From an uncultured Gemmataceae bacterium (GTDB lineage Bacteria; Planctomycetota; Planctomycetia; Gemmatales; Gemmataceae), in assembly GCA_963804745.1 (NCBI GenBank), contig CAWDRY010000012.1, positions 30,562 through 94,561 on the forward strand: 64,000 bases of DNA, in the 5' to 3' direction. This document shows positions 6,594-57,821 of the stretch, piece by piece. The notes under the pieces are model-generated. The model saw only the letters and a list, made by a program, of their open reading frames with translations, did no database searches and was not told the origin of the DNA. A program made the translations under genes and the position numbers. The number at the start of each line of letters is the position of its first letter. Position 1 is the stretch's first letter.

Positions 6594-6700
6594 GGCGAGC
6601 GGCAGAAGATAATTTAGCATCCCTCGCTCACGCTTCTGGCCAGTGTGACACTGGCCCGAAGCGTGAGCGAGGGATGGTATCACTTGCCGCTCGCCTAATG
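6594..6700. repeat. palindromic MITE/REP-like element, copy C (Y-left, X-right; inverted relative to A/B), immediately 3' of the giant gene
   Basis: ggcgagcggcagaagataatttagcatccctcgctcacgcttctggccagtgtgacactggcccgaagcgtgagcgagggatggtatcacttgccgctcgcctaatg. Confidence 0.85.
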
Positions 6701-6705
6701 CCGCC

Positions 6706-9700
6706 TCATCTGTCCAGCCAAACATCATCGCTCGGCTGCCAGGCGCCGGCGCCAACCCTGAACAACTCCGATGAAACTTCAAGCCCGCTTGTGAGGATAG
6801 ACAGGGAGCCGGCATCGGCATCATCACCCATCTGCAACCACACCGAATCGCCCCGTTGATCCGCGCTCGGCGACTGCTCATCGCCGGGAACAGGCACCCC
6901 AACTCCCGCCGCTGGCCCGAAGAAGATCGAGGATAGAGGATGGAGAATGGAAGATAGAGGACGGCAAAGCGCTGGTTCCATCCTCAATCCTCCATTCTCC
7001 ATCCTCTCGCGCTGTGCAGGCTTGGCTGTCTCATCTCCCACGACCGCCACCGCAAGACCTGCGTTTGCCTGCACACCGGCTGCGACGGGAGACAGCACGT
7101 TAATGCACCCATCCAGCGCATCCCCCGCCGCATTGCTCGGCCGCGGTTCCAGATCGAACAGGAAATCATTCCCCTGCGCATCCGTCCCCCCCAACGCCGT
7201 CCATGCGCTCCCGGCATTCTGCATCAAGTTGATGATCGCCGCCCCCGCCGGCGCATCCGGCTTGACATGGAACGTAATCAGCGCCAGGCTGCCACCGGAC
7301 AACTCACCACTCACCACTCCACCACTCACCACTCCACCACTCACCACTCCACCACTCACCAGTCCGCGATACCCACTGATGTAAATAATCCCCGCCGCCC
7401 GGTCGACGTTGACCGTGAAGTTATCGAATGTCTGCGTCAGACTCCCCCGCACCACATCCCCCACCGAAACCACATCCACCCGGCTCGTGTCATAAGCAAT
7501 GACCAGATTCACCGAATCCAACCCAGCGAGCGGCGGGGTTGATCCCCGCCGTCCAGCCCCCGGGTCAAGATTCACCGGCACCACTACCTCCGCTTGCGGT
7601 TTCGCGCTGACCTCTGACCTCTGACCTCTGACCTCTGACCTCTGACCTCTGACCTCTGCCTGTCCGATACTCACCACCGGGTCCGGCCCCGTAACCCCCG
7701 GCGTCACCGCCGGCAGCACGGGAACGTTCGCCTGCGTAATCCCCACCGCTTCCCGTGCAATCTGCAAAGCATCCAACCCCGTCAGCACATTATCCCCGCT
7801 CACATCCCCGACGATGAGCGGATCAGCCAGCACCCACTGCCGAAACCCCGGATCAAGCCCGACCACCACACGCGAAATGCGCTGAGCATCAAGGCCGGTG
7901 TAAATTCCATCGCCGGTAACGTCGCCGAGGAAGCCCGAAACGTGAACGGCGGCGTCGTCCAGGGCGGTGATGCTGCCGCCGTTGATCTGAATGTTTTGCA
8001 AATCGAGGATTTCCTTCGCCCCATAACCCGCCGTGCTCGGCACCAACGCCGTCAATGTGGCAAAGATTGCCGATTCATTGTGACCAAGCACGATACCCGT
8101 TGGCGAGGAGTAAGTCACCACCGCCAGTCCCGGCGTAGCTACTCCACTCACTGTCAGCAGATTGGGATCATAAGCCAGGTTCAACGTTACCGAAGTAACG
8201 GTCACCGTCGCACTGCCCTCGTTCAATAACCTTACCGGAATTCCATCCGTCCCCTCCGTCCCATTCACCGCCTGCCCCGGCCCGCGCAAAGTCCGGCAAA
8301 CTAACAACCACCGCGTTGGGCGGGTTAATAACCACGAACGTGGTGACAAAATTATCCCCCGGCGTGCCGTCGCCGTTGCCGTCGAGCAAGTTGCCGTCAA
8401 CATCCTGGAACCCGTTGCTGGCACTGCGGAGTGTGACGGTATAGGTGCCGTCGGGCAGCACGCCAAACAGAGTTCCGGCAGCAGCACTACCGAGGACACC
8501 GCTCTGTCCGGTCTGGATGAAGGTGATGCGCTGCTGCCCTGCAACTGTATCGACGACCAGCGAGCCGCGAATTGGGCCGGCGCCGGTGCCGATGAGAGTG
8601 ACGTCTTCTGACCCCAGAGTGCCGGTCGAGTTGTCGTACAGGTTGAGCGAACTGGTGTCGAGTAGCCGGTCGAACACGGCCTCGAAGCCGGTGGCCGTGG
8701 GCGCAAAGGCAGTCACCCGTAACGTGGCTGCTTGGATTGACTGGATTAGCGGCGCGGACGTACTGCCCGGGAAGCCCGTGTCCCCGCCGTAGACCGCCGT
8801 GATCGAATGCCCGCCCACCGCCAGCCCGTTCGTGGTCCACGAAGCGTTGCCGCTACTGTCGAGCAGCCCTGTCCCCAGGCTCGTACTTCCGTCCATGAAC
8901 GTGACCGTGCCCGTAGGTGTACCGTCGCTGCTGCTGACCGTAGCCGTGAAGCCCACCGTTTGGCCCACCATCGCCGGATTGAGTGAAGACACCACGGTGG
9001 TCAAGGTTGATGGCAGGACCGTTATAAGCCCGTCGAGAGCATCACCGGCTGCATCGCTGGGCGCCGGTTGCAAGGTAAAATTGCCCAGGGCGGCGCCTGT
9101 CGCATCGCTGCCGTGCAGCACCGTCGTGGTCGTCTGCACGTGTTGCTGCAAGTTGATAATGGCTGCTCCCGGCAGCGCAGCCGCCTTGATGTGGAAATGA
9201 ATGATTGCCACACTGCCGCTGCCGAAACCGAAAATCGCGCCGGCCGACCGATAGGTACTCAGCCGAACCGTGCCCGCCGTATTGTCGTAATTGGCCACAA
9301 AGCCGTCAAACGTGCTGGTCAAGGTGCCCGGCTGAATGTCCCCCGCCGACAGGATTTCAAGCCGGCTGGTGTCGTAGGAGATGGCCAGATCGGCCTGCTC
9401 CAGGCTATCGGATCGATCCAGGTTTACCGGCACTGCGATGCTGCTACCGATTCCGCCGCTGAAGGTCGTGGGGATACTGATGGTAGCCACGGGCAATACG
9501 GTTTGCGTCAGGGCAACCGAGGTGCTGCCGGCGAAGTTCGTGTCGCCGCCGTAGACCGCGCTGATCGTATGCCGGCCGGGGGTCAGTGTCGTCGTGCTGA
9601 ACGTAGCCATGCTTCCCCTCTCCCCCTGGGAGAGGGGTAGGGGTGAGGGCGGCCGTGCCCAGCGGAATGCCGCCATCCTGGAACGTCAGCACCCCGCTCG

Positions 9701-12700
9701 GCCACTGACCACTGACCACCGACCACTGACTACCGACCACGGCAGTGAAAGTGATTGCCTGGCCCGCCGCCGCTGGATTGAGCGACGAAGTCGCGACAGT
9801 GCTCGTGCTCGCCTGATCGACGGTCTCGTACACGGCAGCCGAAGTGCTCCCCAAGGAATTGACATCGCCGCCATAAACACTCCTCAACACGTGCTGGCCG
9901 ACACTAAGACTGCTGACCGCAAAGATGGCTGTCCCGCTAGTGTCCAGCGTCCCATAACACAATACCGTGCTGCCATCCAGGAACGTCACGCTGCCTGTTG
10001 GAATGATGCCTACACTCCCGTTCACGGTCGTTGTGAAACTCGCGCTTTGGCCGAAGATAGAAGTGTTGACAGATGGGAAGGCCGTGGTGATGGTCGTTTG
10101 CTGGATCGCTTGAATCAAGGCCGCCGAGGTGTTGCCGAGGAAGTTGCCGTCCCCGCCGTACACCACCGTGATGCTGTAACTATCAACAGCCAGGACAGTA
10201 CTCAGATGGAAGGTGGCGATGCCAGCGTTCAGCGTCACCGTGCTCCTGCCTGGCAGCGGGTCCCCATCCCCCAGGAAGGTGACCGTGCCTGTCGGCGTGC
10301 CAGCACCCGGAGAGGCGGCACTTATGGTGGCGGTAAACGTGATGGATCGACCAAAGCCGGATGGGTTGACCGGCGATGTCAGAGTCACGGTAGTGCTGGC
10401 TGGGTTGACTGTTTGAGGTAGTGGATTCGACGTGCTCCAGCCCAGGTTCGTATCGCCGCCGTAGATCGCCGTTAGGGTGTGGGCCCCTGCCGACAGTGTT
10501 GCGGTGCTGAAGCTGGCCGTGTCGCCGCCAACGGCAACGGTGCCGATGGAAGTGCTGCCGTCCATGAACGTCATTGTCCCCGTTGGCGTGCCCGCCCCGG
10601 GTGTACTGGCAGCAATCGTGGCCGTGAATGTCACGCTCTGACCGTAAAGGGATGGATTTACCGGCGAAGTCACGGCTGTGGTCGTGGTGGCCTTGGCTTG
10701 AATGACCGTTTGCACCGTGCTGCCGCTGCTGCTGTTGAAGTTTGCATCCCCGCCGTAAGTCGCTGTGATGCTGTGTACACCCACGGCCAATGAGGACGTC
10801 GCATAGGTCGCCATCCCACCACTCAGGGTAACTACACCGCCGGATAGCACAGCCCGTTCTCCATGAATGTCACTGTGCCGGTCGGCGTGCCGGTGCCCGG
10901 ACTGACGGCGCTCACCGTTGCCGTAAAGGTCACGCTCTGGCCGAGGACCGACTGATTGGCCGGCGCACTGACCGTGGTGCTCGTGCCGGCCTGGTTGACC
11001 GTCTGCAAGAAGTCGCCCAACGTGCTGTCGTTGAAGTATCTGTCGCCGCCGTAGATAGCAGTGATGGTGTGCGTCGCCACCGTCAGGCTGCTGGATGTGA
11101 ACGTCGCCGTGCCGCCTTGCCCCTCTCCCCCTGGGAGAGGGGTTGGGGTGAGGGTACCCGTACCGATGGAGCTGCCGCCCTCCTCGAACGTGACCGTACC
11201 TGTCGGTGCCCCCCCGCCGGGACTGACGGGACTGACCGTGGCCGTGAACGTCACCGGCTGGCCGAATACCGATGGGTTGACTGACGAGGTCACTGTCGTG
11301 GTTGTGGCTGTCTGTGCGGGCACTTGTGTCTGGTAGGCGCCGATGTCGGGGTTGCGGATTGGCCGGGGCTGGCCGCGCTGGTCGGTCGTGAGGCCGTTTT
11401 GCGCCGGCACCGATGGCGGGACTGCCCGGCAGCAAGGCCATCGTCGCTGTCGGCCCTCCATTGTTTGCCAGAGGACCAAGCAAGGGATCAATCGCGTTCG
11501 GGTCGGAGCCGGTCACCCCAACTTGATTGTGGTTGCCATCACCGTTCCTGATGCCAGTCAGGCCGGTGCCGTCGCCGATCAGGTTATAGGCGCGTAGCGC
11601 TGGTGACGCTGCCGGCAATGTCCGGATCACTGATGGTCACTGTGTTGCCGGCCACAATGGTGCTGAGCAGCGTTACCGTATCCGAATTGCCGATGCCGCC
11701 GCCATACGCAGCAGAGTTGCCGGCCAGGGTAGAGTTGCTCACCGTCACCGTGCCAGCGGCATTGAAAATGCCGCCGCCGTCCCATACGGCGGAGTTGTCG
11801 GCGAGGGTACAGTTGCTCACCGCCCCCGTGCCATTGTTGTAGATGCCGCCGCCGTAGCCGTGGGCGGCGTTACCGTAGAGGGTGCTGTTGCTCACCATCA
11901 CCGTGCCACCGAGATCGTTGCAGATGCCGCCGCCGCTCCCTTGGGCGGAGTTGCCGGACAGAGTGCAGGTGCTCACCGTCACCGGGCCATTCCTGTTGTA
12001 AATGCCGCCGCCGCTCCCTTGGGCGGAGTTGCCGGACAGAGTGCAGGTGCTCACCGTCAGCGTGCTCCAATTCCAGTAGTTGCCTACATCGATGCCGCCG
12101 CCGCTACTTTGGGCGGAGTTGCCGGAGAGAATACAGTTGCTCACCGTCACCGGGCCACCGTAGCTGAAGATGCCGCCGCCGCCGCCGCCGCCGCCCCAAT
12201 AATTAGGATAAGCGCTGTTGCCGGAGAGGGTGCAGTTGCTCACCGTCAGCGGGCCATAATTGCAGATGCCGCCGCCATTGCCGCCGTTGGATGCGGAGTT
12301 GCCGGAGAGGATGCAGTTGCTCACCGTCAGCGTGTTCCAGTTGGCCATGTCGATGCCGCCGCCATCGCCGTTGAATGCGGAGTTGCCGGACAGGGTGCAG
12401 GTGCTCACCGTCACCGGGCCACTGTTGTTGTAGATGCCGCCGCCGCTGTATGCGGAGTTGCCGGACAGGGTGCAGGTGCTCACCGTCAGCGGGCTATTGT
12501 TGTAGATGCCGCCGCCGTTGCCGTTGGAGGCGGAGTTGCCGGAGAACATGCAGTTGCTCACCGTCACCGGGCCACCGTTGTTGTAGATGCCGCCGCCGTT
12601 GTAGTATGCGGAGTTGCTGGACAGGGTGGTGTTGCTCACCGTCACCGTGCCATAATTGCAGATGCCGCCGCCGTAGGATGCAGAGTTGCCCGACAGGGTG

Positions 12701-15700
12701 GTGTTGCTCACCCACAGCATGCCACTATTGTAGATGCCGCCGCCGTAGGATGCGGAGTTGCCCGACAGGGTGGTGTTGCTCACCCACAGCATACCACTAT
12801 TGTAGATGCCGCCGCCGTAGGATGCGGAGTTGTCGGACAGGCTGCAATTGCTCACCGTCAGCGTGCCATTGTTGAGGATGCCGCCGCCTGCACCGGGGGT
12901 GGATCCATTGCTGATGGTCAGGTTTTCCAGGGTGGCGGTGGTGTTCGCTGCCACCGTGAAGAGCAAGGAGTTCCACCCGCGGCCGCCGCCCTGGATGGTC
13001 AAAGCGGCTGTCGGGCCAGCAATGATGATCGACGCGCCGAGGGTGGCGTTGTCGAGGTTCAGTGCGCCTGCGGGCGCGATCGTCTGCGGCGTGGCGAAAA
13101 CCACGGGGTCGAAGGAAATGGTGAAGAGGCCGCCGTTGCCGTCGTTGTCCGCCTGGGCCACCGCATAGGACAGGCTGCCTGGTCCCGAGCTATTGATGTT
13201 CGTAACGATGTAGTAACCGGGGACCGCCGGGGCGATAGTGAACGACTGATCGACGGGGGCGGCGGCGCTGTAGTCGATGCTGCCCGCCTGCACCGCCACG
13301 ACGGTGACCACCGTCCCTGCCGGCGTGGCGCCGAGGATGGTGATTGTGTTGCCGGAGATGCTGGCATACTGCCCGCCCGCCACAATGCGGAAGCTGACCG
13401 CCAGGCCCGAGCTGGCGCTGGCGCTCACCGTAAACGGTGCGTTGCCATAGATCTGGTTGGCCAGCGGCCCGAAGCTGATCGTCTGCCTGACCGCGGTCTG
13501 ATAGGCGCCGATGTCCGGGCTGCCGGCCGGCCGGGGCTGGCCGCGCTGGTCGGTGGTGATGCCGTTAACGATCTCGCCGGCGCCGATTGCAGGGCTGCCC
13601 GGCAGCAAGGCCATCGTAGCCGTCGGCCCGCTGTTATTTTGCAAAGGGCCAAGCAGGGGATCGATCGGGTTGGGGTCTGAGCCGGTCACCCCGACTTGAT
13701 TGTGGTTGCCATCGCCGTTGCTGATGCCGGACAGGCCGGTGCCGTCGCCGATAAGGTTATAGGCACTGCTTCCCGTGATGATGCCGTAAATGTCCGGCTC
13801 ACTGACGGTGTTGCCCGCCACGATGGTACTGAACAATGTCACCGTCCCGGCGGCAGTGCCGATGCCGCCGCCGTTACCTTGGGCGGTGTTGCCGGACAGC
13901 GTGGAGCTGCTTACCGTCACCGTGCCGTCTTGGTTCCAAATGCCGCCGCCGTTACCCTGGACGGAGTTGCCGGCGACGGTGCAGTTGCTCACCGCCAGCG
14001 TGCCGTCGTTCCAAAGGCCGCCGCCGTTACCCTGGGCCGAGTTGCCGGCGACGGTGCAATTGCTCACCGCCAGCGTGCCGTCGTTCCAGATGCCGCCGCC
14101 GCTGCTGCTCGTGTACCCATTACTGATGGTCAGGTTTTCCAGGGTCGCGGTTGTGTTCGCGGCCACCGTGAAGACCGAGAAGTTCGACCCGCTGCCGCCG
14201 CCCAGGATGGTCAGAGCAGACTGCCGGGCCGGCAATGAGCACCGAAACGCCGGGCGTGCTGTTGTCGAGGTTCAGCGTGCCTGCCAACGTTATCGTCTGC
14301 GCCGTGGCGAAAACCGTTGCATCGAAGTTGATGGTGAAGAGTTCCCCCCTGGTGTCGTTGTCCGCCTGTTCGACCGCGTAAGGCAGGCTGCCGAGCACCG
14401 TGCTGTCGTTGCTGGTATTGGTGACGGTGTAGGCCGGTGTCTGATAGGCGCCGATGTCGGGATGGCTGCTTGACCGAGCATGGCCGCACTGGTCGGTCGT
14501 GAGGCCGTTTTGCGCCGGCGCCGATGGCGGGACTGCCCGGCAGCAAGGCCATCGTCGCCGTCGGCCCACCATTGTTTGCCAGAGGACCAAGCAGGGGATC
14601 TATCGGGTTCGGGTCTGAGCCGGTCACCCCAACTTGATTGTGGTTGCCATCGCCGTTGCTGATGCCGGTCAGGCCGGTGCCGTCGCCGATCAGGTTATAG
14701 GCGCGAGCGCTGGTGACGCTGCCGGCAATGTCCGGATCACTGATGGTCACTGTGTTGCCGGCCACAATGGTGCTGAGCAGCGTTACCGTATCCGAATTGC
14801 CGATGCCGCCGCCATACGCAGCAGAGTTGCCGGCCAGGGTAGAGTTGCTCACCGTCACCGTGCCAGCGGCATTGAAAATGCCGCCGCCGTCCCATACGGC
14901 GGAGTTGTCGGCAAGGGTACAGTTGCTCACCGCCCCCGTGCCATTGTTGTAGATGCCGCCGCCGTAGCCGTGGGCGGCGTTACCGTAGAGGGTGCTGTTG
15001 CTCACCATCACCGTGCCACCGAGATCGTTGCAGATGCCGCCGCCGCTCCCTTGGGCGGAGTTGCCGGACAGAGTGCAGGTGCTCACCGTCACCGGGCCAT
15101 TCCTGTTGTAAATGCCGCCGCCGCTCCCTTGGGCGGAGTTGCCGGACAGAGTGCAGGTGCTCACCGTCAGCGTGCTCCAATTCCAGTAGTTGCCTACATC
15201 AATGCCGCCGCCGCTACTTTGGGCGGAGTTGCCGGAGAGAATACAGTTGCTCACCGTCACCGGGCCACCGTAGCTGAAGATGCCGCCGCCGCCGCCGCCG
15301 CCGCCCCAATAATTAGGATAGGCGCTGTTGCCGGAGAGGGTGCAGTTGCTCACCGTCAGCGGGCCATAATTGCAGATGCCGCCGCCATTGCCGCCGTTGG
15401 ATGCGGAGTTGCCGGAGAGGATGCAGTTGCTCACCGTCAGCGTGTTCCAGTTGGCCATGTCGATGCCGCCGCCATCGCCGTTGAATGCGGAGTTGCCGGA
15501 CAGGGTGCAGGTGCTCACCGTCAGCGGGCCACTGTTGTTGTAGATGCCGCCGCCGCTGTATGCGGAGTTGCCGGACAGGGTGCAGGTGCTCACCGTCAGC
15601 GGGCTATTGTTGTAGATGCCGCCGCCGTTGCCGTTGGAGGCGGAGTTGCCGGAGAACATGCAGTTGCTCACCGTCACCGGGCCACCGTTGTTGTAGATGC

Positions 15701-18700
15701 CGCCGCCGTTGTAGTATGCGGAGTTGCTGGACAGGGTGGTGTTGCTCACCGTCACCGTGCCATAATTGCAGATGCCGCCGCCGTAGGATGCAGAGTTGCC
15801 CGACAGGGTGGTGTTGCTCACCCACAGCATGCCACTATTGTAGATGCCGCCGCCGTAGGATGCGGAGTTGCCCGACAGGGTGGTGTTGCTCACCCACAGC
15901 ATACCACTATTGTAGATGCCGCCGCCGTAGGATGCGGAGTTGTCGGACAGGCTGCAATTGCTCACCGTCAGCGTGCCATTGTTGAGGATGCCGCCGCCTG
16001 CACCGGGGGTGGATCCATTGCTGATGGTCAGGTTTTCCAGGGTGGCGGTGGTGTTCGCTGCCACCATGAAGACCGAGGAGTTCCACCCGTGGCCGCCGCC
16101 CTGGATGGTCAAAGCGGCTGTCGGGCCAGCAATGATGATCGACGCGCCGAGGGTGGAGTTGTTGAGGTTCAGTACGCCTGCGGGCGCGATTGTCTGCGGC
16201 GTGGCGAAAATCACGGGGTCGAAGGAAATGGTGAAGAGGCCGCCGTTGCCGTCGTTGTCCGCCTGGGCCACCGCATAGGACAGGCTGCCTGGTCCCGAGC
16301 TATTGATGTTCGTAACGATGTAGTAACCGGGGACCGCCGGGGCGATAGTGAACGACTGATCGACGGGGGCGGCGGCGCTGTAGTCGATGCTGCCCGCCTG
16401 CACCGCCACGACGGTGACCACCGTCCCTGCCGGCGTGGCGCCGAGGATGGTGATTGTGTTGCCGGAGATGCTGGCATACTGCCCGCCCACCACAATGCTG
16501 AAGCTGACCGGCAGGCCCGAGCTGGCGCTGGCGCTCACCGTAAACGGTGCATTGCCGTAGGTCTGGTTGGCCAGCGGCCCGAAGCTGATCGTCTGGTTGG
16601 TCTCGCTCTGGTAGGCGCCGATGTCGGGGTTGCCGGCCGGCCGGGGCTGGCCGCGCTGGTCGGTGGTGTTGCCGGCAACGACCTTGCCGGCACCGATCGC
16701 AGGGCTGCCCGGCAGCAAGGCCATCGTAGCCGTCGGCCCGCTGTTATTTTGCAAAGGGCCAAGCAGGGGATCGATCGGGTTGGGGTCTGAGCCGGTCACC
16801 CCGACTTGATTGTGGTTGCCATCGCCGTTGCTGATGCCGGACAGGCCGGTGCCGTCGCCGATAAGGTTATAGGCACTGCTGCCCGTGATGATGCCGTAAA
16901 TGTCCGGCTCACTGACGGTGTTGCCCGCCACGATGGTACTGAACAATGTCACCGTCCCGGCGGCAGTGCCGATGCCGCCGCCGTTACCTTGGGCGGTGTT
17001 GCCGGACAGCGTGGAGCTGCTTACCGTCACCGTGCCGTCTTGGTTCCAAATGCCGCCGCCGTTACCCTGGACGGAGTTGCCGGCGACGGTGCAGTTGCTC
17101 ACCGCCAGCGTGCCGTCGTTCCAAAGGCCGCCGCCGTTACCCTGGGCCGAGTTGCCGGCGACGGTGCAATTGCTCACCGCCAGCGTGCCGTCGTTCCAGA
17201 TGCCGCCGCCGTTGCTGCTCGTATGCCCGTTGCTGATGGTCAGGTTTTCCAGGGTGGCGGTTGTGTTCATGGCCACCGTGAAGACCGAGAAGTTCGACCC
17301 GCTACCGCCGCCCAGGATGGTCAGAGCAACTGCCGGGCCGGCAATGAGGACCGAAGCGCCGGGCGTGCTGTTGTCGAGGTTTAGCGTGCCTGCCAGCGCG
17401 ATCGTCTGCGCTGTGGCGAAAACCGTTGCATCGAAGTTGATGGTGAAGAGTTCCCCCCTGGTGTCGTTGTCCGCCTGTTCGACCGCGTAAGGCAGGCTGC
17501 CGAGCACCGTGCTGTCGTTGCTGGTATTGGTGACGGTGTAGGCCGGTGTCTGATAGGCGCCGATGTCGGGATGGCTGCTTGACCGAGCATGGCCGCACTG
17601 GTCGGTCGTGAGGCCGTTTTGCGCCGGCGCCGATGGCGGGACTGCCCGGCAGCAAGGCCATCGTCGCCGTCGGCCCACCATTGTTTGCCAGAGGACCAAG
17701 CAGGGGATCGATCGGGTTCGGGTCTGAGCCGGTCACCCCAACTTGATTGTGGTTGCCATCGCCGTTGCTGATGCCGGCCAGGCCGGTGCTGTCGCCGATC
17801 AGGTTATAGGCGCTATTGCTGGTGACGCTGCCGGCAATGTCCGGATCACTGATGGTCACTGTGTTGCCGGCCACAATGGTGCTGAGCAGCGTTACCGTAT
17901 CCGAATTGCCGATGCCGCCGCCATACGCAGCAGAGTTGCCGGCCAGGGTAGAGTTGCTCACCGTCACCGTGCCAGCGGCATTGAAAATGCCGCCGCCGTC
18001 CCATACGGCGGAGTTGTCGGCGAGGGTACAGTTGCTCACCGCCCCCGTGCCATTGTTGTAGATGCCGCCGCCGTAGCCGTGGGCGGCGTTACCGTAGAGG
18101 GTGCTGTTGCTCACCATCACCGTGCCACCGAGATCGTTGCAGATGCCGCCGCCGCTCCCTTGGGCGGAGTTGCCGGACAGAGTGCAGGTGCTCACCGTCA
18201 CCGGGCCATTCCTGTTGTAAATGCCGCCGCCGCTCCCTTGGGCGGAGTTGCCGGACAGAGTGCAGGTGCTCACCGTCAGCGTGCTCCAATTCCAGTAGTT
18301 GCCTACATCGATGCCGCCGCCGCTACTTTGGGCGGAGTTGCCGGAGAGAATACAGTTGCTCACCGTCACCGGGCCACCGTAGCTGAAGATGCCGCCGCCG
18401 CCGCCGCCGCCCCAATAATTAGGATAAGCGCTGTTGCCGGAGAGGGTGCAGTTGCTCACCGTCAGCGGGCCATAATTGCAGATGCCGCCGCCATTGCCGC
18501 CGTTGGATGCGGAGTTGCCGGAGAGGATGCAGTTGCTCACCGTCAGCGTGTTCCAGTTGGCCATGTCGATGCCGCCGCCATCGCCGTTGAATGCGGAGTT
18601 GCCGGACAGGGTGCAGGTGCTCACCGTCACCGGGCCACTGTTGTTGTAGATGCCGCCGCCGCTGTATGCGGAGTTGCCGGACAGGGTGCAGGTGCTCACC

Positions 18701-21630
18701 GTCAGCGGGCTATTGTTGTAGATGCCGCCGCCGTTGCCGTTGGAGGCGGAGTTGCCGGAGAACATGCAGTTGCTCACCGTCACCGGGCCACCGTTGTTGT
18801 AGATGCCGCCGCCGTTGTAGTATGCGGAGTTGCTGGACAGGGTGGTGTTGCTCACCGTCACCGTGCCATAATTGCAGATGCCGCCGCCGTAGGATGCAGA
18901 GTTGCCCGACAGGGTGGTGTTGCTCACCCACAGCATGCCACTATTGTAGATGCCGCCGCCGTAGGATGCGGAGTTGCCCGACAGGGTGGTGTTGCTCACC
19001 CACAGCATACCACTATTGTAGATGCCGCCGCCGTAGGATGCGGAGTTGTCGGACAGGCTGCAATTGCTCACCGTCAGCGTGCCATTGTTGAGGATGCCGC
19101 CGCCTGCACCGGGGGTGGATCCATTGCTGATGGTCAGGTTTTCCAGGGTGGCGGTGGTGTTCGCTGCCACCATGAAGACCGAGGAGTTCCACCCGTGGCC
19201 GCCGCCCTGGATGGTCAAAGCGGCTGTCGGGCCAGCAATGATGATCGACGCGCCGAGGGTGGAGTTGTTGAGGTTCAGTACGCCTGCGGGCGCGATTGTC
19301 TGCGGCGTGGCGAAAATCACGGGGTCGAAGAAAATGGTGAACGGGCCGCTGCTGGTGTTGTTGTCTGCCTGGGCCAGCGCATAGGGCAGGCTGCCGATCA
19401 CCGTGTTGTCGTTGCTGGTATTGGTGACAGTGTAGAACTGGGCCTGGCTGACCATTTGCACAAAGCTGCCGCTGCTGCTTACACAATTGCCGTCGCCGCC
19501 GTAGACTGCCGTTATCGTGTGGTAGCCGGCCGTCAAGCTGCTGGTCATGAATGTGGCCGTGCCGTTGCTGTCCAGAGTGACCATGCCGTTGCTCAGTGGG
19601 AAGCCCCCGTCCTCGAACATGACCGTGCCCGTCGGCGTGCCGGCGCCCGGCGAGGTGACACTGACCGTGGCGGTAAAGCTCACACTCTGCCCGAACACCG
19701 AGGGACTGGCAGATGAAGTCACCGTTGTCGTCGTGCTCGCCGGGTTCACGGTCTGGGTGAGAGTGTCTGAGGTGCTGGCCGTGAAGTTGCCGTCGCCGCC
19801 GTAAGTCGCCGTGATCGTATGAACGCCAACGGTAAACATAGACGTGGCGAAGGTGGCCGCTACCCCGCCGCTGACTGCTCCCGTGCCCACGGAGGTGCCG
19901 CCGTCCTGGAACGTCACTATCCCCGTCGGCCACTGGCCACTGACCACTGACCACTGACCACTGCATGTGGCCGTGAAAGTCACGCCCTGGCCGAACACCA
20001 ACGGGTTGGTCGAAGAATTCACCGTGGTGGTGGTGCTCGCCTGGTTGACGGTCTGGACGGTGCTGCCGCTGCTGACGCAGTAGGTGCTGTCGCCGCCGTA
20101 GCTGGCCGTGACGGTGTGGGTGCCGGCACTCAGAGTCGAGATGGGGAAGGAAGCAGTGGCAATGGCGCCGCTGCCGCTCAATGTGCTTTGCCCAAGCGAC
20201 GTGCTGCCGTCGCTGAAGGTCACCGTGCCGCTAGGCGTCTCGGACTGGTTCCCGGTGACGGTGGCGCTGAATGTGACAACATCGCCTAAGATTGACGTAC
20301 TGGAAGACGATGTCACCGTGGTGGTAGCGGTGCCGCCCGTGACGGTCTGTAGGAAGGTGCCCGAGGCGGGGCTGGCGCTGAAGTTGGTGTCGCCGCCGTA
20401 GCTGGCCGTGATGGTATGCGTGCCAATCGACAGCGCCGTGGTCGAGAACGTCGCCGTGGTGCCGCTGATCGAACTCGTGCCGATGGAGCTGCCGCCGTCG
20501 CTGAAGGTCACCGTGCCGGTTGCGCCGGTGGGCGAACTGTGGACCGTGGCCATGAACGTCACCGTCGAGCCGTAGACTGGGGAACTGGGCGTCGCCGCCG
20601 TCACCGTGGTCGTGGTGCTCGCCTGGTTGACGGTCTGGAGGAAGGTGCCGGTGGTGCTGCTGGCGGCGTAGTTGGTCCCGCCGCCGTAGGTCGCGGTGAG
20701 CGAGTGGGTGCCGGCGGCCAGGCTGCTGGTCGTAAATGTGGCGATGCCGCGGCCGGTGCCGCTGCCGTCGTCGGTCACATTGGCGAATCCCAGGGTGGTG
20801 GCGCCGTCCATAAACATCACGCCGCCGTCGATCGTGTTGCTGGCGCCGCCTTGCACGGTTGCGGTGATGGTCACAGGCTCGCCGAAGGCCGTCGGTCCCG
20901 ACGAAGTCACGGTGGTGGTCGATGCGATCGTTCCGGGAGTCAGCACGATCAGGGTGCCGTCCACCACGTCACCGGCGGTATCGTTGGGAGGGGGATCCAG
21001 CGTGTACACATCCCCTGAGCTAATGCCATATGCCTTCGTGGGAAGGCTTTGGTTGAGGGACAGCGGGACGCTCGCTCGCAAGTTGATGATACTGTGCCCT
21101 GCAGACTGCAGGTTGGTAAAGGCAATGTCCAGCAGATCGATGGTTTGATCCGAATTGTCCAAACCGGTGAAAGAAAATGCGTCGACGGCGATTGTGCCTA
21201 CTAGACCCGGCAACAGAGTATTGTTGGGGACGATGTTCCCGGCGTAAGTGAACCCGGGGGACAGCGGTTCCTTGAAAGCTACTGCCTGTTCGTTCGAGAC
21301 AGTTGTCGCCACAAACAGCTGCGTGGGATCGTAACTCATGGCGATGTCAAACTCGCCCAGGGTAGCCGCGCCGATGGCGGCCAAGCCCACGCTGACAGGC
21401 ACTGTTTGGAACTGAAAAGCATGGAACGGTCGGACGGCGACAAACATTTCTCCCGTTGACGACGGCGTGAGGCGCTCCTCGAACGGCTCGACGGACAGCC
21501 AGCAGCGCCGGCGCTCGGTCTTGCGGCGGCCGCGATGCTTGCGCCAGCGCCTCCAGGACCAAGTGTTCAATTCGACCATTTGCACCAGGTTTTGCCACCA
21601 ACGAAAAAATGTCATAATGCGGCTCCTCAA
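6706..21630 (-). CDS. giant (~4,900 aa if contiguous) secreted adhesin-like protein fragmented into 6 overlapping ORFs by frameshifts: N-terminal Planctomycete leader, 3 cohesin-like modules, dockerin-like repeats, many Big_3-like Ig domains, PbH1 parallel beta-helix repeat arrays, choice-of-anchor-Q-like domains
   Basis: ORFs 17302..21630, 14211..17699, 11584..14235, 9444..11630, 8168..9676, 6706..8706 all minus strand, overlapping, with domain continuity; N-term ...RRRCWLSVEPFEERLTPS; SGNSAxxGGGIYN repeats; YNLIGDGTGLxGISNGDGNHNQVGVTGSDPNPIDPLLGPLxNNxGPTATMALLPGSPAIGAG; GDVSGDNVLTGLDALQIAREAVG dockerin-like; AISYDTSRLEILSAGDIQPG cohesin-like. Confidence 0.6.
7302..7370. repeat. in-frame SSR (CACCACTCACCACTC)x4 within giant gene, encodes (GVVSG)n
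   Basis: read directly; same GGTGAGT/ACTCACC heptamer family as intergenic palindromes. Confidence 0.8.
7606..7652. repeat. in-frame SSR (GACCTCT)x6.5 within giant gene
   Basis: read directly: ctgacctctgacctctgacctctgacctctgacctctgcc. Confidence 0.8.
11335..19440. repeat. near-identical tandem duplication, unit ~3106-3110 bp, ~2.6 copies (boundaries ~11335/14445/17554/19440) inside the giant gene
   Basis: spurious +strand ORFs recur at 11603/14713/17822, 12375/15485/18591 etc. with identical translations; offsets 3110, 3109, 3106. Confidence 0.85.
12171..12194. repeat. (GCC)8 trinucleotide SSR encoding poly-Gly in beta-helix module; copies at 15282-15305 (x8) and 18391-18411 (x7)
   Basis: read directly; copy 3 is one unit shorter. 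Confidence 0.8.
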
Positions 21631-21840
21631 TACTCAGGGGGAAAGTCGATAGTACGGAATAGGAAAGAAAGAACTGGCATCCTGCTCGTCCGCAGTCATT
21701 AGAAACCCGGTTTCTGTTAGTCCACTGCGGAGCCAACGCGCCAAAACCCGGCGTTCCGGCAACTGATCCTTCAATTCTCCGCTCGGGTAAACGAGAGAGG
21801 CGCGGCCCTCTGCGGAATCGGTTCGCCCCAAGCGTGTAAC

Positions 21841-24049: not shown

Positions 24050-26045
24050 GTCCCCGGCCGTAAATAACCGTCCAACAGGGATCGATGGCAGGTGGAAATA
24101 GGGGTAGGGAGCCTGCCTCCGGCAGGCTCCCGAGTCGATCAGGATGGGGTCGTGGGGCACAACCCGGCGTCGACGGGTTTCGGGGCGACCGAACTGCGCA
24201 GGCGTTCGCGTTCCTGAGGTGTCATGTTCCAGGGCAGGTAGCATTGCGGCTCGGGCGGCGGCCGGCCCCCAGCTTTCGCACAGTCCGACAGGTAGGCCGT
24301 GAGCCATTTGGCAACGTCCATGTCCCAAAGCTGAACCGTTTGAAACAGCGAGAACAGCATGGCTGCCAAGCGTCCGCTCCACAACGATCCCGAGCCGTAG
24401 AAGTTCTTGCGGGCAATCACCGGGCCGCGCTGCCGGCGCTCGGCTTCGTTATTGTCCATCGGCACTTCGGGATGATCCACAAACACTGTCAGGCCGGTCC
24501 AGTGTTCTTTCAGGCTGTTGAGCGCTTTGCGTTGCGGGGGCCGCAACTTCGGTTGCGTCAATTCCTCGTCACAACGCTGCCGCATGTGTTCCACTTGTTG
24601 ACGCACGAATTGGTCAGCCTCGGCATAGGCGGTGGCGTTGGCGGTGACGGCCAGGCGCTGGTCATTGAGCTGGTACAAAGTGCCGATGGCTTCAACCCAT
24701 GACCAGGCCCAGTCGGTCAGCTCCGACCAACCGGTCAGCACCTCGAGGAAGTCGCGGCGCACATGGGCCCAGCAAAACGACAGGATGATTTTCCCCGCCT
24801 TGACCTGGGCCATGGCCTTGTAGGCGCTGTAGCGATCGACGTTCATGATGCCTTTGGCACCGTCGCCCAAGTGTCCTTCGGGAACCTCGTGGGAACGCGT
24901 TGGATCGAGCACGAACACGACCGACTCTGGGGCGGCGAAGACCCAGAGCTGCCACACGAAATTGGCTTTGTTCGGCTGCTTGACGAAGATGGGCCAGCGG
25001 GTTTCGTCGCCATGCCAATGGTTTTCGCCGCGATTGTGTTCGGCGAGGAGTACGTAGAGCGGCTCAAAGAGCGGCACGAGTTTATGCAGGCCGTCGGTGA
25101 TGGTGCCGGCGGCCAAATCAAGCCCATAGCTGCGTAATTCGGCGAGGACACGGTACAGCGGCTGGAAGAATTCGAACTTGTGCTGCAGGATCAGCACCCA
25201 GATGGAAATGCCGATGGCGCTTTTGCGAATGAGTTTGTCGGGTGGCGGAGCCGTGACCACAAGCGGTTGCTTGGGGCAGTTGCAGCGCCGGCGATAACGG
25301 CGGCGCTGATAGCGGCGGCGATGGGCACGCACTTCAATTTCGAGGATGTTGCCGTCGGTGGTGCCGGCAATCTCCTCAAACGGTTGGCCGCAAGCGGGAC
25401 AACATTTTTGCTCGTCGGGCAATGAGCAGTCTTCATGGCTGGTGGGCAGATGATCGTGCTGGCGTCGGCCGTGGCCTTGGCTGCCGCGCTGTTGGCCGCG
25501 TGGCCGCCGCTGCTGGTTGGTAGGCGCGGTCTTACCCTGCGCCGGCTTCGTCGCAGATGAGGTTTCGGATTTGCGGCCGAAGAGCCGACGTTTCAACTCG
25601 CGGATTTCGCCTTGCAGCAGTTGGTTCTGTTCCGCCAACGCCACTTCGCGCTGCCGGGCGCGTTGATGTTGGGCCTGCCAATAGTTGGCCTGCCAACGCA
25701 GATCGACGAGTTGCCGCCGCAAACGGTAGACGGTCACCAGAGCGAGCAAAAAGAGCCAAGCGAGCATACAAAAACGCTGCCACAACCAGGCCGCCGGGTC
25801 AGGTTGCGAATCTTCCTGGAAGTCGGCGTCGAGGACGATGGCCGGGGAGGCCGGAACCAGCACTCCTTGCTGAGCCGGAAGAGGAACCAGAGGATAGAAA
25901 GCGTTGGCATCCATGCTCCTCAATCGTAGGCAGCCAACCAGCCGCGGATTCAGCGAATGTCAAAAAAACCGCGGATCAAGGCAATAAACCAGGCAAACTT
26001 TACGCCCAGCGGACCCCGTTGGTCGAATGTTTACCCCCGGCCCGA
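24050..26045 (-). mobile_element. IS66-family insertion sequence (single-ORF ISBst12-like organisation, no tnpA/tnpB)
   Basis: imperfect terminal IRs ccggccgtaaataaccgtccaacagggatcg (24054-24084) vs rc of cggaccccgttggtcgaatgtttacccccgg (26010-26040); internal TnpC. Confidence 0.7.
24139..25923 (-). CDS. tnpC: IS66 family transposase TnpC
   Basis: N-terminal leucine zipper/coiled coil, CPACG zinc finger, DDE core (HGDETRWP...), C-terminal NNEAERRQRGPVIARKNFYGSGS. Confidence 0.85.
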   Translation of the reverse strand: MRSMDANAFYPLVPLPAQQGVLVPASPAIVLDADFQEDSQPDPAAWLWQRFCMLAWLFLLALVTVYRLRRQLVDLRWQANYWQAQHQRARQREVALAEQNQLLQGEIRELKRRLFGRKSETSSATKPAQGKTAPTNQQRRPRGQQRGSQGHGRRQHDHLPTSHEDCSLPDEQKCCPACGQPFEEIAGTTDGNILEIEVRAHRRRYQRRRYRRRCNCPKQPLVVTAPPPDKLIRKSAIGISIWVLILQHKFEFFQPLYRVLAELRSYGLDLAAGTITDGLHKLVPLFEPLYVLLAEHNRGENHWHGDETRWPIFVKQPNKANFVWQLWVFAAPESVVFVLDPTRSHEVPEGHLGDGAKGIMNVDRYSAYKAMAQVKAGKIILSFCWAHVRRDFLEVLTGWSELTDWAWSWVEAIGTLYQLNDQRLAVTANATAYAEADQFVRQQVEHMRQRCDEELTQPKLRPPQRKALNSLKEHWTGLTVFVDHPEVPMDNNEAERRQRGPVIARKNFYGSGSLWSGRLAAMLFSLFQTVQLWDMDVAKWLTAYLSDCAKAGGRPPPEPQCYLPWNMTPQERERLRSSVAPKPVDAGLCPTTPS

Positions 26046-28955: not shown

Positions 28956-28968
28956 CCCGACTTGAAAG

Positions 28969-29081
28969 TGGTGAGTGGTGAGTGGTGAGTGGTGAGTGGT
29001 GAGTGGTGAGTGGTCCAAATGGTTACCACTCACCACTCACCTACTCACCACTCACTCCTCTTCTCCACTCACCACTAACTC
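28969..29081. repeat. heptamer-repeat palindrome HPR-1: (GGTGAGT)6-ggtccaaatggttacc-(ACTCACC-like)6, 14 nt after response-regulator stop
   Basis: read directly. Confidence 0.85.
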
Positions 29082-33535: not shown

Positions 33536-35037
33536 CTACTCCGTCCAGTCCTTCCGCTGCCTTGACGAAGGGATGTTCAGCATCTTGCGATATTTGGTCA
33601 CGGTTCGCCGCGCCAACGGATAGCCCGTGTCGTGCAGCTTGTTGACCAGGTCCTCGTCGGAGAGCGGGGCGGCCTTGTCTTCTTTCTCGATGATTTCCAA
33701 CAACTTCTGCTTGATCGTCTCCCAGGCGACTTCCTCTCCCGTCGCGGTATGCGTGCCGCCGCCGAAGAAACGCTTGAGGGGGAAGATGCCGCGCGGCGTC
33801 TGCACCCATTTGTCGTCCACCGCCCGGCTGACCGTGGTGACGTGGACGCCGACCTGGTCGGCAATCTGCTGCATCTTGAGCGGCTCGATGAACTCCGGCC
33901 CCTTGTCGAGAAAGCACCGCTGGTGCTGGATGATCGCCCGCGTAACCTTCTCCAGGGTGCCGCGCCGCTGCTCGATGGACTCCAGGAGCCACTGGGCCGC
34001 CTGAATCTTGCGTTTGAAGTATTCCTTGTCCTTGGGGCTGGTGTTCTTGTCGCGGTACAGCTCCAGATAGCGCCGGCTGATGTAGATGTTGGGCACCCAG
34101 TCGTCGACCAGACGGACCGTGTACTCACCGGTTTCGGCTCTGTCGACGATGATGTCCGGGACCACGTAGGGAATGTTTTCGGCGCTGAAGCGGGCGCCCG
34201 GCTTCGGGTTGAGATGCCGCAGCGCTTCAATGGCCGTCTTGATGACCGTCAGATCGAAGCCGGTCCGCCGCTGGATCACGGGCAGGCGGTTGTGCTGAAT
34301 GTCTTCGAGATGGTTGAGAATGAGCACGCGCAGCACGTCGCGGTGCAGCGTTTCCGGGGTCAACTGCAAAAGCAGACACTCGCTCAAATCGCGGCGCCGA
34401 CTCCTGGAGGATCGAGCTTTTGGACGATCCGCAGAGATTCCTCAATCTGCTCGCTGGTGACCGGCTGCTCGAAGCTCCTGGCCAGATCCTCGCTCCTGGC
34501 CAGTTCCTCCAGAGAAGTTCGCAGGTAGCCGTTATCGTCAATGGAAGCGATCAGGTAGCGTAACAGCTTGAGCTGATCCGGCTTGAAATCGAGAAATGTA
34601 AGCTGGTCGTTCAGGTAATCCTGTAACGACTGAGGCCGTGAAGCCATGTTCTGCATGGCGTCGTGCTTCTTGTCGCCCTCTTCGTCCATGCCGTTGCGCG
34701 ACGGGCGGTGCTCTTCGTTGAAGTGATCTTCCCAATCCTTGCTCATGGCCTCCAGCCGGTCGAAGTCCAGCTCGTTGGCGCCGGTCTCCTCGATGATCAG
34801 CTCCGTGTTGTCGGGGTCGCTGGTTTCTTCGACCTCCGCGGCCGGGGCCTCCCCCTCTTCCTCCGACGTCTCGGAGCTTTCCTTCAATTCCAGCACAGGG
34901 TTCTCTTGCAGCTCCTGCTCAATGCGCTCTTGCAACGCCATGATGGGCAGTTGCAGGATTTCCATCGATTGAATCATCCGCGGAGCCAGAATCATCCTCT
35001 GGTCCATCCGCTGTGTCATCGTCGTGTCAAGTCGCAT
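33536..35037 (-). CDS. rpoN: RNA polymerase sigma-54 factor; one frameshift at ~34385 (missing C in CC/CCC run)
   Basis: region I LAPRMIQSMEILQLPIMALQERIEQELQENP, acidic region II, HTH and RpoN box ARRTVTKYR in downstream ORF. Confidence 0.9.
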
Positions 35038-35071: not shown

Positions 35072-35680
35072 TCAGAATGCCCGCCGCCCTTCGAGAGCGT
35101 CGGCCAACATTTGGCTGTTGGCAAATTCTAGCACCGAACCTGACGGCACACCACGCGCCAGCCGCGTGATCCGCACTCCCGTGGGCGCCAGCAGATTGGA
35201 AAGGTACAGCGCCGTGCCGTCGCCTTCCAACGTCGGATTGGTCGCCATGATCACTTCCTGCACGCCGCCCTGCCGGACACGCTGCAAGAGCGCCTCGATT
35301 GTCAACTGCTCCGGACCGACATTGTCCAGCGGAGCCAGACGCCCGTGCAGCACGTGGTACAGACCGCGGTAATTCCCGGCCCGCTCCAGTGCGGTCAGGT
35401 CGCGGGGCTGCTCGACCACACAGACCAGCGACGGATCGCGCCGGGCGTCCCCGCACAGATTGCACAGATCGTTTTCTGTAAGGTTGAAGCACTGCCGGCA
35501 CTGCCGTACTTCGTCCTTGACCGCTCGCAAGGCCTCCGCCAGCGCCAGGACCACCTCACGATCCGCCGCCAGCAGGTAGTGCGTCAAGCGTTCCGCCGTC
35601 TTGGGTCCGATACCCGGCAGCTTGCTCAACTCCAGAACAAGACGGGCAATGGCTCCTGCCGGCTCTATGTCCACGTTCAT
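35072..35680 (-). CDS. recR: recombination protein RecR
   Basis: HhH LSKLPGIGPKTAERL, C4 zinc finger CRQC...CNLC, Toprim VVEQPRD. Confidence 0.9.
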   Translation of the reverse strand: MNVDIEPAGAIARLVLELSKLPGIGPKTAERLTHYLLAADREVVLALAEALRAVKDEVRQCRQCFNLTENDLCNLCGDARRDPSLVCVVEQPRDLTALERAGNYRGLYHVLHGRLAPLDNVGPEQLTIEALLQRVRQGGVQEVIMATNPTLEGDGTALYLSNLLAPTGVRITRLARGVPSGSVLEFANSQMLADALEGRRAF

Positions 35681-39510: not shown

Positions 39511-39614
39511 CTGCTCATACGTTGGCGAGCGGCGGGGTTCACCCCCGCCGTGCGTTGCCGGCGAGCGGCGGGCTTCACCCCCGCCGTGCGTTGCCGGCGA
39601 GCGGCGGGCTTCAC
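39511..39614. repeat. 36-bp tandem repeat x3, each unit a 7-bp-stem hairpin (cggcggg-cttcacc-cccgccg), followed by short CATCAGTCC-like repeats; in a >700-bp apparently noncoding region
   Basis: gttgccggcgagcggcgggcttcacccccgccgtgc repeated. Confidence 0.8.
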
Positions 39615-40094
39615 CCCCGCCGTGTTTCCCATCAGTCCCATCGCTCCCATCAGTCCCATCTCCCTCCACCCAATACCGCACCCACTCCCCCCGAATCGGC
39701 ACATCCTCCTCCGGAATACACACCAGCCGATACGCCCGCGCAGTTGGTGTCCATTGTGGGCCAGCCAGAAAGGCGTGACAAGAAACGCGGCCCCAGCGTA
39801 ACCCCGGACGCCGGGCCAGCTCGCGGAGAAACAGTTCCGCGGCCAGCGACCGTAACATATACAGGCGTATAGTCAAGGTCGGTAGAATAAGAGACAAAAG
39901 CACTCGTGTCAGGGTTTGAAGCTCCCGGCCACGGTCTGATTTGCATAACTGGTTGCTGAGATAAGCATTACGGAAAATGAGGGTGCTGTAAAATGGCCGT
40001 TTTGCTGGCCAAATGTGGCCGCGCCAAACGGCCATTCTTGGCCCCTGCTCTCGGTCTTCTTCTTTGTGCTCTTTGTGTCTTTGTGTTGAAAAAT

Positions 40095-43523: not shown

Positions 43524-43611
43524 AAACTGTGGAAAGAGTGAGTGGTGAGTGGTGAGTGGTGTGAGGGAAGGAAGGTTTGTGTGGGGCAGCAGAAGCGATG
43601 AGTGATGAGTA

Positions 43612-51542: not shown

Positions 51543-51601
51543 ATCGCAAGTGAAAGCGCAACGAAGATGGAGAAATGCCCGTCCCAGGCGAGGAATCAGC
51601 C

Positions 51602-57421: not shown

Positions 57422-57551
57422 GGGATGACTGCCCTTACTTTCTCGCGCAGTCCTGATGGAGAGTGCTTGGTATAATGGGTTGTCGTAAGAGGTTCCCATG
57501 ATCTCGGAAAAGGGCTTGCGCCAGTAGACAGCAATCGAACGGAGAACGACC

Positions 57552-57821
57552 ATGACGGTGATGCTTGACCTACGGGCGGAAATCGAACGACTCTTGAAAG
57601 AGAAGGCTGCGACCACAGGCCAAACGCTTGAAGGTTATCTTGAAGGGCTGGCGGAGCGGGAGGCACATGCCAGGAACGGCACTCGAAATGGTCCTGCGCA
57701 ATTGACGGTCGAGCAGTGGTCCGCCGAATGGCGGGCCTGGGCAGATGCAAACAGAAAACTGCCAGCGGGCCTCATGATTGACGACAGCCGAGAGAGCATT
57801 TACGCCGGGCGAGGCGAATGA
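57552..57821 (+). CDS. VapB-family antitoxin
   Basis: small ORF overlapping PIN gene start by 4 nt. Confidence 0.6.
   Translation: MTVMLDLRAEIERLLKEKAATTGQTLEGYLEGLAEREAHARNGTRNGPAQLTVEQWSAEWRAWADANRKLPAGLMIDDSRESIYAGRGE

Follow-up and report, generated by a model that had tools for sequence, protein, structure and literature searches.

A giant gene with four cohesin-like modules and one dockerin in an uncultured Gemmataceae bacterium

Non-cellulosomal proteins with cohesin and dockerin modules have already been described for Planctomycetes, together with the 'planctosome' hypothesis (Andrei et al., 2019, PMC6461901, where a survey of such proteins by Peer et al., 2009, is also cited). The modules are reported there on large secreted multi-domain planctomycete proteins with no cellulase context, and extracellular multiprotein assemblies are proposed to form through Ca-dependent pairing. 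Giant bacterial genes have also been treated before (Reva & Tummler, 2008, cited in PMC6461901). In the Planctomycetes-Verrucomicrobia-Chlamydiae (PVC) phyla, proteins that reach or exceed 5,000 aa are common, and giant genes are often fragmented in public assemblies, with long-read assemblies carrying indels (bioRxiv 10.1101/2023.11.21.568195). The gene considered here occupies the minus strand at 6706..21630 of a 64,000-nucleotide stretch of contig CAWDRY010000012.1 (assembly GCA_963804745.1) from an uncultured Gemmataceae bacterium; this whole stretch is referred to as the window, and positions are counted from its first letter. The locus is best explained, with a probability of roughly 0.7, as one gene of ~4,970 residues whose frame breaks are errors and whose product is intact and would act by the mechanism proposed below.

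The product shares with the planctosome proteins its cohesin and dockerin modules in a large multi-domain context, and peptidase domains are found on relatives that carry the same C-terminal cassette. The published model distributes anchor, adaptor and enzyme over separate proteins, with Sec signal peptides and anchoring by a lamin tail, whereas the window protein is one chain with four cohesins and one dockerin, a passenger of beta-helices and immunoglobulin (Ig)-like domains and a leader of a non-Sec-like ExLExR type, and it lacks a recognised anchor. The fixed order of beta module, cohesin, dockerin and cohesin that makes up its tail is not described in the passages of PMC6461901 that were consulted. 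Like the giant genes of the PVC phyla, the window gene is very long and repetitive, encodes an extracellular-type protein of many domains and belongs to a planctomycete-like genome, although its ~5,000 aa are modest against the at least 10,000 aa reached in Planctomycetota and the 85,804 aa reached in Omnitrophota (bioRxiv 10.1101/2023.11.21.568195).

Cellulosomal scaffoldins (Clostridium thermocellum CipA and OlpA; Acetivibrio ScaB) share the cohesin fold, the best structural matches being 3ul4_A, 4ums, 3kcp_A and 4fl4. Target-normalised TM-scores of the cohesin model against cellulosomal structures range from 0.37 to 0.75 (0.6-0.75 for single-cohesin chains) at an identity of 10-20%. The duplicated F-hand segment is likewise similar to that of cellulosomal dockerins, the type I dockerin 4dh2_B being the best match. 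Scaffoldins, which belong to another phylum, keep their cohesin array apart from the enzyme-borne dockerins, while in the window protein cohesin and dockerin adjoin in a conserved tail; no CBM, SLH or GH family was found in any segment of the gene. The Pmp and choice-of-anchor-Q proteins (Chlam_PMP, Beta_helix, NF041518) are similar in their GGxIxN/xGNSA coils and in helices capped by choice_anch_Q domains, and homologues are named 'parallel beta-helix repeat protein' or 'predicted outer membrane repeat protein' in the source databases. Pmp autotransporters differ in that no beta-barrel translocator was matched in any segment of the window gene, which ends in a cohesin-dockerin-cohesin tail instead of the usual C-terminal anchor.

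The original prediction had read six overlapping minus-strand open reading frames (ORFs) as a single ~15-kb gene whose modules run on from one ORF to the next. The six ORFs are present (17302..21630, 14211..17699, 11584..14235, 9444..11630, 8168..9676 and 6706..8706) and all the peptide motifs quoted from them occur in their translations, but two short segments at ~14513-14219 and ~11400-10855 had been overlooked, and the whole gene consists of nine frame segments joined by eight one-base edits. When stop codons are mapped in the three frames of the minus strand, long open stretches appear, each handing over to the next, and the eight breaks were placed by reading every junction in three frames. 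With one edit per break, an ORF of 4,973 aa with no internal stop is obtained, its likely start codon being the ATG at ~21615 and its product beginning MTFFRWWQ. A sliding scan of the phase of third-codon-position GC content (GC3), which is homology-free, returned the same nine segments in the same order, with GC3-like values of 0.75-0.85 in the repeat core. Once repaired, the tandem unit of the core measures 3,108 nt, exactly 1,036 codons, and the choice-of-anchor-Q domains after the long helices begin at repaired residues 1276, 2312 and 3348. The break sites are read through uninterrupted in homologues of other genomes. Given the edits, the GC3 phase, the 1,036-codon units and the read-through homologues, the minus strand from 21630 to 6706 is one gene, or was until very recently.

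Six separate genes were considered and rejected: domains are cut in mid-model and the downstream ORFs lack leaders. At the first, second and fifth breaks, for instance, the choice_anch_Q model is cut at position 31 of 58, and it spans 1-57 in the unbroken copies. Three plus-strand ORFs of 600-720 aa (11860-13680, 14634-16790 and 17743-19716) were also set aside as antisense shadows of the GC-rich repeat, with low-complexity translations and a GC3 pattern that fits the minus strand. No further copies of the modules were found by tblastn in the window outside 6600-21700. The locus is publicly annotated as fragments, the gene calls P0005 and P0020 coming from here, and the database "proteins" of 480 and 499 aa from this contig are thus pieces of one gene of ~5,000 aa.

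The eight breaks (J1 to J8, in the direction of transcription) lie in different contexts. J1 (17618..17621) falls in the string GCAAAACGG within a choice-of-anchor-Q domain, and the identical string holds J2 (14509-14512) and J5 (11398-11401); there, reading A6 for A4, which gives AIGAGAKNGLTTDQ, fits the spacing of the homologues better than a one-base deletion. J3 (14219) has one C too many in comparison with the sister repeat unit (17329) and J4 (11595) one A too many in comparison with both sister units. At J6 (10853..10857), within a Big_3_5 domain, a G-run is short by one (GGG is present where GGGG is needed). J7 (9608..9614, at ~9611) is directly 3' of one copy of a palindrome described below. 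J8 (8279..8286, at ~8284) lies in GCGCGGGCC, within the near-invariant motif LPDFARGPGQ, of which the family's DFARGPGQ is regained by adding two G. Judged site by site, J6 and J8, and possibly J1, J2, J5 and J7, would fit shortened homopolymer runs, and a systematic error at one sequence context would explain the same break in all three repeat copies.

The housekeeping genes of the window speak to the nature of these breaks. The dnaX gene (within 36183-38005) is split inside DNA_pol3_gamma3 (model positions 2-69 and 69-140) and rpoN (within 33536-35037) inside Sigma54_CBD (2-81 and 85-185), where the conserved GVGARDL codons are short of one C; recR (35072-35680), which stands between them, is intact. 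A broken dnaX is not viable, and therefore the assembly must carry indel errors. It is indel-prone, and at essentially the same density in both places: two breaks in ~4.5 kb of housekeeping genes against eight in the 14.9 kb of the giant gene. Since housekeeping genes of the same window are broken too, the eight breaks look like assembly errors, and most likely they arose as consensus errors in an assembly prone to indels; the real product would then be intact. All repeat-derived inserts in the gene keep the frame, which suggests a frame held open by selection and favours an intact gene.

The main rival is a genuine, decaying pseudogene, in which the eight frameshifts are real, the GCAAAACGG lesion was copied from unit to unit through gene conversion or duplication, and the full-length protein is never produced. 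We consider it unlikely, but several points count in its favour and against the reading preferred here. The lesion shared by the three repeat units may have arisen as a real mutation that gene conversion then spread; J3 and J4 are insertions outside homopolymers, each unique to one unit; the reading frame has been invaded by repeat elements and a hairpin; and public annotation of the source contig also gives only fragments (P0005 and P0020). Many close database relatives are short fragments as well, which fits either error-prone assemblies or lineage-wide decay, and the standing of each single break as an error is judged from the sequence rather than from reads (a scan of metagenomes for DNA across the J1 site gave zero matches). 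Three further points touch other parts of the preferred reading: the copy number of the 3.1-kb unit is taken from the assembly alone, none of the gene's segments gave a detectable Sec signal, lipobox, PEP-CTERM, type IX secretion system (T9SS) signal or beta-barrel anchor, and the structural model of the cassette has a predicted TM-score (pTM) of 0.53 and cannot tell an intramolecular cohesin-dockerin contact from an intermolecular one. Against decay, dnaX and rpoN, which are essential or conserved, carry indels at a similar density, so that indels are not peculiar to the giant gene, no in-frame stops occur beyond those made by the shifts, a single base per site regains 4,973 codons, GC3 periodicity is still strong through the repeat core, and the frame is preserved by every repeat-derived insert.

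An artefactual expansion or collapse of the 3.1-kb units, or a run of independent adjacent genes, is improbable. Tandem units that are 97-100% identical are hard to assemble, and the assembly is demonstrably imperfect in dnaX and rpoN, but 74 clustered differences between units point to distinct copies and not to one copy pasted twice, and the unit junctions are in register and in frame once repaired. For separate genes, the downstream ORFs would have to be leaderless and start in mid-domain, and intact relatives of ~3,900 aa or more carry the same cassette. Programmed frameshifting at the breaks, or phase variation through changes in array length, was rejected as very improbable: one break site is seen three times and four 7-nt arrays of a copy number that varies among relatives lie in the coding sequence, so that frame switching is possible in principle, but no motif is common to the eight sites, GCA AAA CGG is not a known +1 or -1 slippery site of the prfB or dnaX types, no break falls inside an array, all arrays are now in frame, and the mid-domain breaks in dnaX and rpoN point to errors.

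The module assignments of the original prediction were all upheld by profile, profile-profile and fold tests, with a correction to one count. At the N-terminus, the leader (21460..21615) has a W-rich start and a basic stretch followed by SVEPFEERLTPS, its motif being EPFEERLTPS at residues 49-58. It had been called a planctomycete-type leader and is a real recurrent motif: in N-termini from other loci (L003-L080) a W/F-rich start and an Arg-rich stretch are followed by (L/V)ExLE(D/E/Q)Rxx(L/P)(A/S/T), and 28 of the 40 cassette-bearing ORFs of other genomes have the pattern [EQ]x[LFM][EQ]xRxx[LPVMI][ASTV] within their first 150 residues, with a single match in their remaining 55,546 residues. 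Leader and cassette thus occur together in these 28 ORFs. Judged by eye on the sequence, the leader has no hydrophobic Sec-type core; no papers on the motif in Planctomycetes were found. The N-terminal 240 aa have no match in Pfam or NCBIfam, a single homologue (the 164-aa fragment P0001) among 5.8 billion proteins, and, for the N-terminal module, none in contigs of GTDB species representatives, to which the source species therefore does not belong.

This region includes the first cohesin-like module (20935..21456, AMSYDPTQLFVATT, with the peptide AMSYDPTQLF). No match was obtained for it in the Pfam search, and its AlphaFold2 (AF2) model was too poor (mean predicted local distance difference test score, pLDDT, 43.9) and was not used for a fold search; aligned by hhalign with the family's own cohesin profile, it matches at a probability of 97.3% (E = 2.4e-11, 141 columns, full-length alignment). 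Three further modules are matched by Pfam Cohesin (PF00963, gathering threshold 24.1 bits). There are therefore four cohesin-like modules and not the three first counted, and the chain carries these four together with one dockerin.

Twelve Ig-like domains were counted from the units of ~95 aa that end in YGGD or YGGG, in agreement with the more than ten Big_3-like domains predicted. Matches to Big_3_5 (PF16640, cut-off 35.5 bits) in three ORFs scored 247, 217 and 105 bits (E = 1e-74, 4e-65 and 4e-30) over 5, 5 and 2 stretches. Five of the domains lie at 19444..20928, the fourth of which holds a heptanucleotide array (19930-19963); six lie at 9509..11329, two with the palindrome and one with the array 9702-9740; and the twelfth, recovered by profile search, lies at 8729..9007.

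Between the two large Ig groups stands the beta-helix core (11326..19443), with three long PMP-type helices, two short ones, five choice-of-anchor-Q caps and two beta modules of ~100 aa (16308-16607 and 13198-13497) that have no match in Pfam or NCBIfam. The predicted SGNSAxxGGGIYN arrays, with 38 xGNSA coils of ~24 aa, scored 93-95 bits with Beta_helix (PF13229, cut-off 25.9 bits) and 36-61 bits with Chlam_PMP (PF02415, 20.6 bits) over their SGNSA/GGGIxN stretches. The YNLIGDG...LLPGSPAIGAG repeats, likened at the outset to choice-of-anchor-Q domains, are matched as such by choice_anch_Q (NF041518, a 58-position model with a cut-off of 25 bits): five copies of YNLIGDG...LLPGSPAIGAG...DIGAYQ were found, with scores of 132, 78, 45 and 44 bits. 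The core amounts to ~2.6 tandem units of 3,108 nt (11326-14436, 14437-17545 and 17546-~19500) that are 97-100% identical. The 74 differences between units 2 and 3 are grouped in few segments, which argues that the units are distinct copies, recently duplicated or homogenised by conversion, and not a duplication made in assembly.

Downstream of the Ig domains, cohesin module 2 (9008..9496, AISYDTSRLEILSAG; repaired residues 4045-4207) scored 43.7 bits (E = 4e-11). The conserved cassette then extends over repaired residues 4301-4856, ~510 aa in the order beta module, cohesin, dockerin, cohesin. Its beta module of ~140 aa (8309..8728) carries the motif DGNLLDGNGDGTPGD and is kept in homologues, with no match in Pfam or NCBIfam. 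Cohesin module 3 (7942..8308, LNLAYDPNLLTVSG; residues 4441-4562) scored 27.4 bits, and its AF2 model resembles cellulosomal cohesins. The dockerin (7708..7941) consists of two F-hand repeats, GDVTGDGIYTGLDAQR and GDVSGDNVLTGLDALQ. Cohesin module 4 (7060..7680, LVIAYDTSRVDVVSVG; residues 4650-4856) contains two repeat-derived in-frame loop inserts (7607-7658 and 7302-7361), and it scored 26.3 bits with these removed and 24.0 bits with them in place. The C-terminal tail (6709..7059) follows, its last ~55 aa being conserved in the relative P0003.

The dockerin-like Ca-binding repeats of the original prediction were confirmed. Dockerin_1 (PF00404, gathering threshold 22.9 bits) scored 24.8 bits on the isolated 89-aa segment and 17.7 bits within the 666-aa ORF, and phmmer matches in the PDB were to dockerins only, the best being 4dh2_B (E = 0.0027). 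In the AF2 model of 7075-8283 (mean pLDDT 84), a short helical domain lies between two beta-sandwiches. In the helical domain the repeats GDVTGDG...LDAQR and GDVSGDN...LDALQ each have a helix (model helices at residues 130-140, 155-159 and 169-179). In the test for a nine-stranded cohesin fold, the 49 top matches of the 50 PDB matches listed were cellulosomal cohesins, with E down to 5e-9. The second insert of cohesin module 4 is disordered in the model (pLDDT below 50).

Cohesin and dockerin on one chain, which the original prediction took to suggest a self-assembling or scaffold-like architecture, are not special to this gene: they belong to a conserved C-terminal cassette that is common to many paralogues and genomes. 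Among GTDB species representatives, 155 stretches were confirmed by tblastn, the best 80 of which were kept and represent 78 distinct loci, and a protein search gave 59 matches, including this locus's own P0005 and P0020, which lie on a contig of 336,610 bp. The best cassette identity among the representatives is ~43%, and the nearest matches of the planctomycete-like source are Gemmataceae. Loci were found in Gemmataceae (at least nine in each of two genomes), Isosphaeraceae, Pirellulaceae (Stieleria and Rhodopirellula among them) and Phycisphaera, and outside Planctomycetota in Betaproteobacteria such as Accumulibacter, Sulfuritalea and Aquabacterium. In an alignment of 13 cassette sequences, 52 columns are invariant and DFxRGPGQ is near-invariant.

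The cassette lies at the C-terminal end, or close to it, in intact ORFs of ~770 to 3,913 aa, several of which exceed the 10-kb flank. The passengers in front of it vary: clostripain and PPC in the 3,913-aa Gemmataceae ORF, Calx-beta in a protein of 882 aa found intact in two independent assemblies, and, from source-annotated Pfam entries of relatives, Calx-beta, FG-GAP and Peptidase_M10, as well as cadherin-like domains. Some relatives have a second dockerin beyond the last cohesin, at their extreme C-terminus (in L050:269-12007, Dockerin_1 at residues 3854-3908), and P0025 and P0054 end in DxNxDG-type repeats where the window protein instead has a different tail of ~115 aa. The leader has no model in Pfam or NCBIfam, nor is there one in either that covers the cassette as a whole. 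The family is defined in this analysis, uncurated, by the leader motif and the cassette, and the window protein has both. The window gene is thus one member of a modular family made up of leader, variable passenger and conserved tail. Within the known giant multi-domain proteins of planctomycetes it is an ordinary case, and its family is widespread but uncharacterised.

Four arrays with a 7-nt period lie within the gene, all in frame. Those at 19930-19963 and 9702-9740 both code for SGQWSVVSGQW, which falls in the same loop in two Ig domains, that at 7607-7658 encodes EVRGQRS repeats at the beginning of cohesin 4, and that at 7302-7361 encodes VSGGV repeats in its disordered loop. At the same two cohesin sites, relatives have other array types, other copy numbers or none. 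A perfect 23-nt palindrome, CCCCTCTCCCAGGGGGAGAGGGG, occurs at 11120-11142 and 9615-9637 and nowhere else in the window; it is read in frame as TPTPLPGGEG, in loops that correspond to each other in two Big_3_5 domains, and the copy at 9615-9637 is directly followed by J7. A related peptide, PLPLSQGE, was seen in a cohesin loop of the relative P0021. Two hairpins were found at the 3' end. That at 6935-7007 has 30-nt arms of GAGGATG-type heptamers and lies in frame in the last ~100 codons (z = -7.2); the relative P0003 lacks ~58 residues that span it. That at 6615..6679 on the minus strand, just past the stop codon, has 32-nt arms (z = -9.6) and could be a terminator or a repeat element.

Arrays of this period are frequent elsewhere in the window (CCACTGA, CTGACCT, ACTCACC, AGTGGTG, GTGAGTG, AAGGATG and others). 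Outside the gene they lie at 27532-27561/27688-27709, 28967-29014/29025-29076, 31073-31104/31114-31147, 38279-38310/38321-38363 and 43538-43561, and the intergenic ones are inverted pairs that fold to long, very stable hairpins (z = -11.4 for 28960-29080). They resemble the STRR repeats of cyanobacteria; no papers on such heptanucleotide repeats in Planctomycetes were found.

In other proteins, long and extended stalks outside the cell are built from Ig repeats and PMP-type beta-helices, and dockerins elsewhere bind cohesins in a Ca-dependent manner. In the mechanism proposed here, the leader would direct export along a route other than classical Sec, and the Ig domains would make up a long, extended stalk of an adhesin-like kind together with the beta-helices, whose core was probably expanded by recent tandem duplication of the 1,036-codon unit. 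The single Ca-binding dockerin would pair with one of four cohesins, whether on a neighbouring copy, on a paralogue that shares the cassette or on the same chain, and such pairing would link the proteins into a network at the cell surface or outside the cell, a 'planctosome-like' assembly of a non-cellulosomal kind. Intermolecular pairing may be regarded as the simplest model, since each chain has one dockerin and four cohesins and many paralogues share the tail; an intramolecular clasp within the tail is the alternative. Gene continuity, the identity and order of the modules, the conservation of cassette and leader and the proneness of the assembly to errors are shown by the analysis; export and a surface location are assumed, and pairing of the dockerin with a cohesin is inferred from what such families do elsewhere. 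A self-assembling scaffold at the cell surface is plausible. More tentatively, and with considerable doubt, leader and cassette may mark an uncharacterised export-and-assembly system in which dozens of different passengers, among them beta-helix adhesins, clostripain-type and M10 peptidases and Calx-beta and FG-GAP proteins, would be exported by a non-Sec leader and cross-linked head to tail through cohesin and dockerin into an extracellular matrix, with variable loops driven by the arrays.

The genes around the giant gene include an esterase, a glycosyltransferase, an IS66-family transposase (24139-25923, near the 5' side of the gene) and others. Two full-length DUF4058 paralogues lie at 48434-49222 and 51575-52378. 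A smaller, separate Beta_helix ORF (60769-61761) has short same-strand ORFs beside it and may be another frameshifted gene. A 21-nt tandem repeat (56303-56615, 14.9 copies, 97% identity) lies inside mirror ORFs of ~800 aa, 55031-57421 on the plus strand and 55139-57616 on the minus strand, the latter with no Pfam match. The 36-nt unit GGCGAGCGGCGGGCTTCACCCCCGCCGTGCGTTGCC at 39524-39624 is repeated head to tail 2.8 times (98% identity) and has an internal GC-rich inverted repeat; it is not CRISPR-like, because there are no spacers between the units.

With indels also in dnaX and rpoN, inference of gene content from this genome needs polishing first. If leader and cassette do mark such an export-and-assembly system, the in-frame heptanucleotide arrays of varying copy number that loops of these modules tolerate would lead to hypervariable or phase-variable surface loops. 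The question is which of the four cohesins is the partner of the single dockerin. Cassette and leader together would offer a testable handle on how an extracellular protein layer is built, and would extend the 'planctosome' idea.

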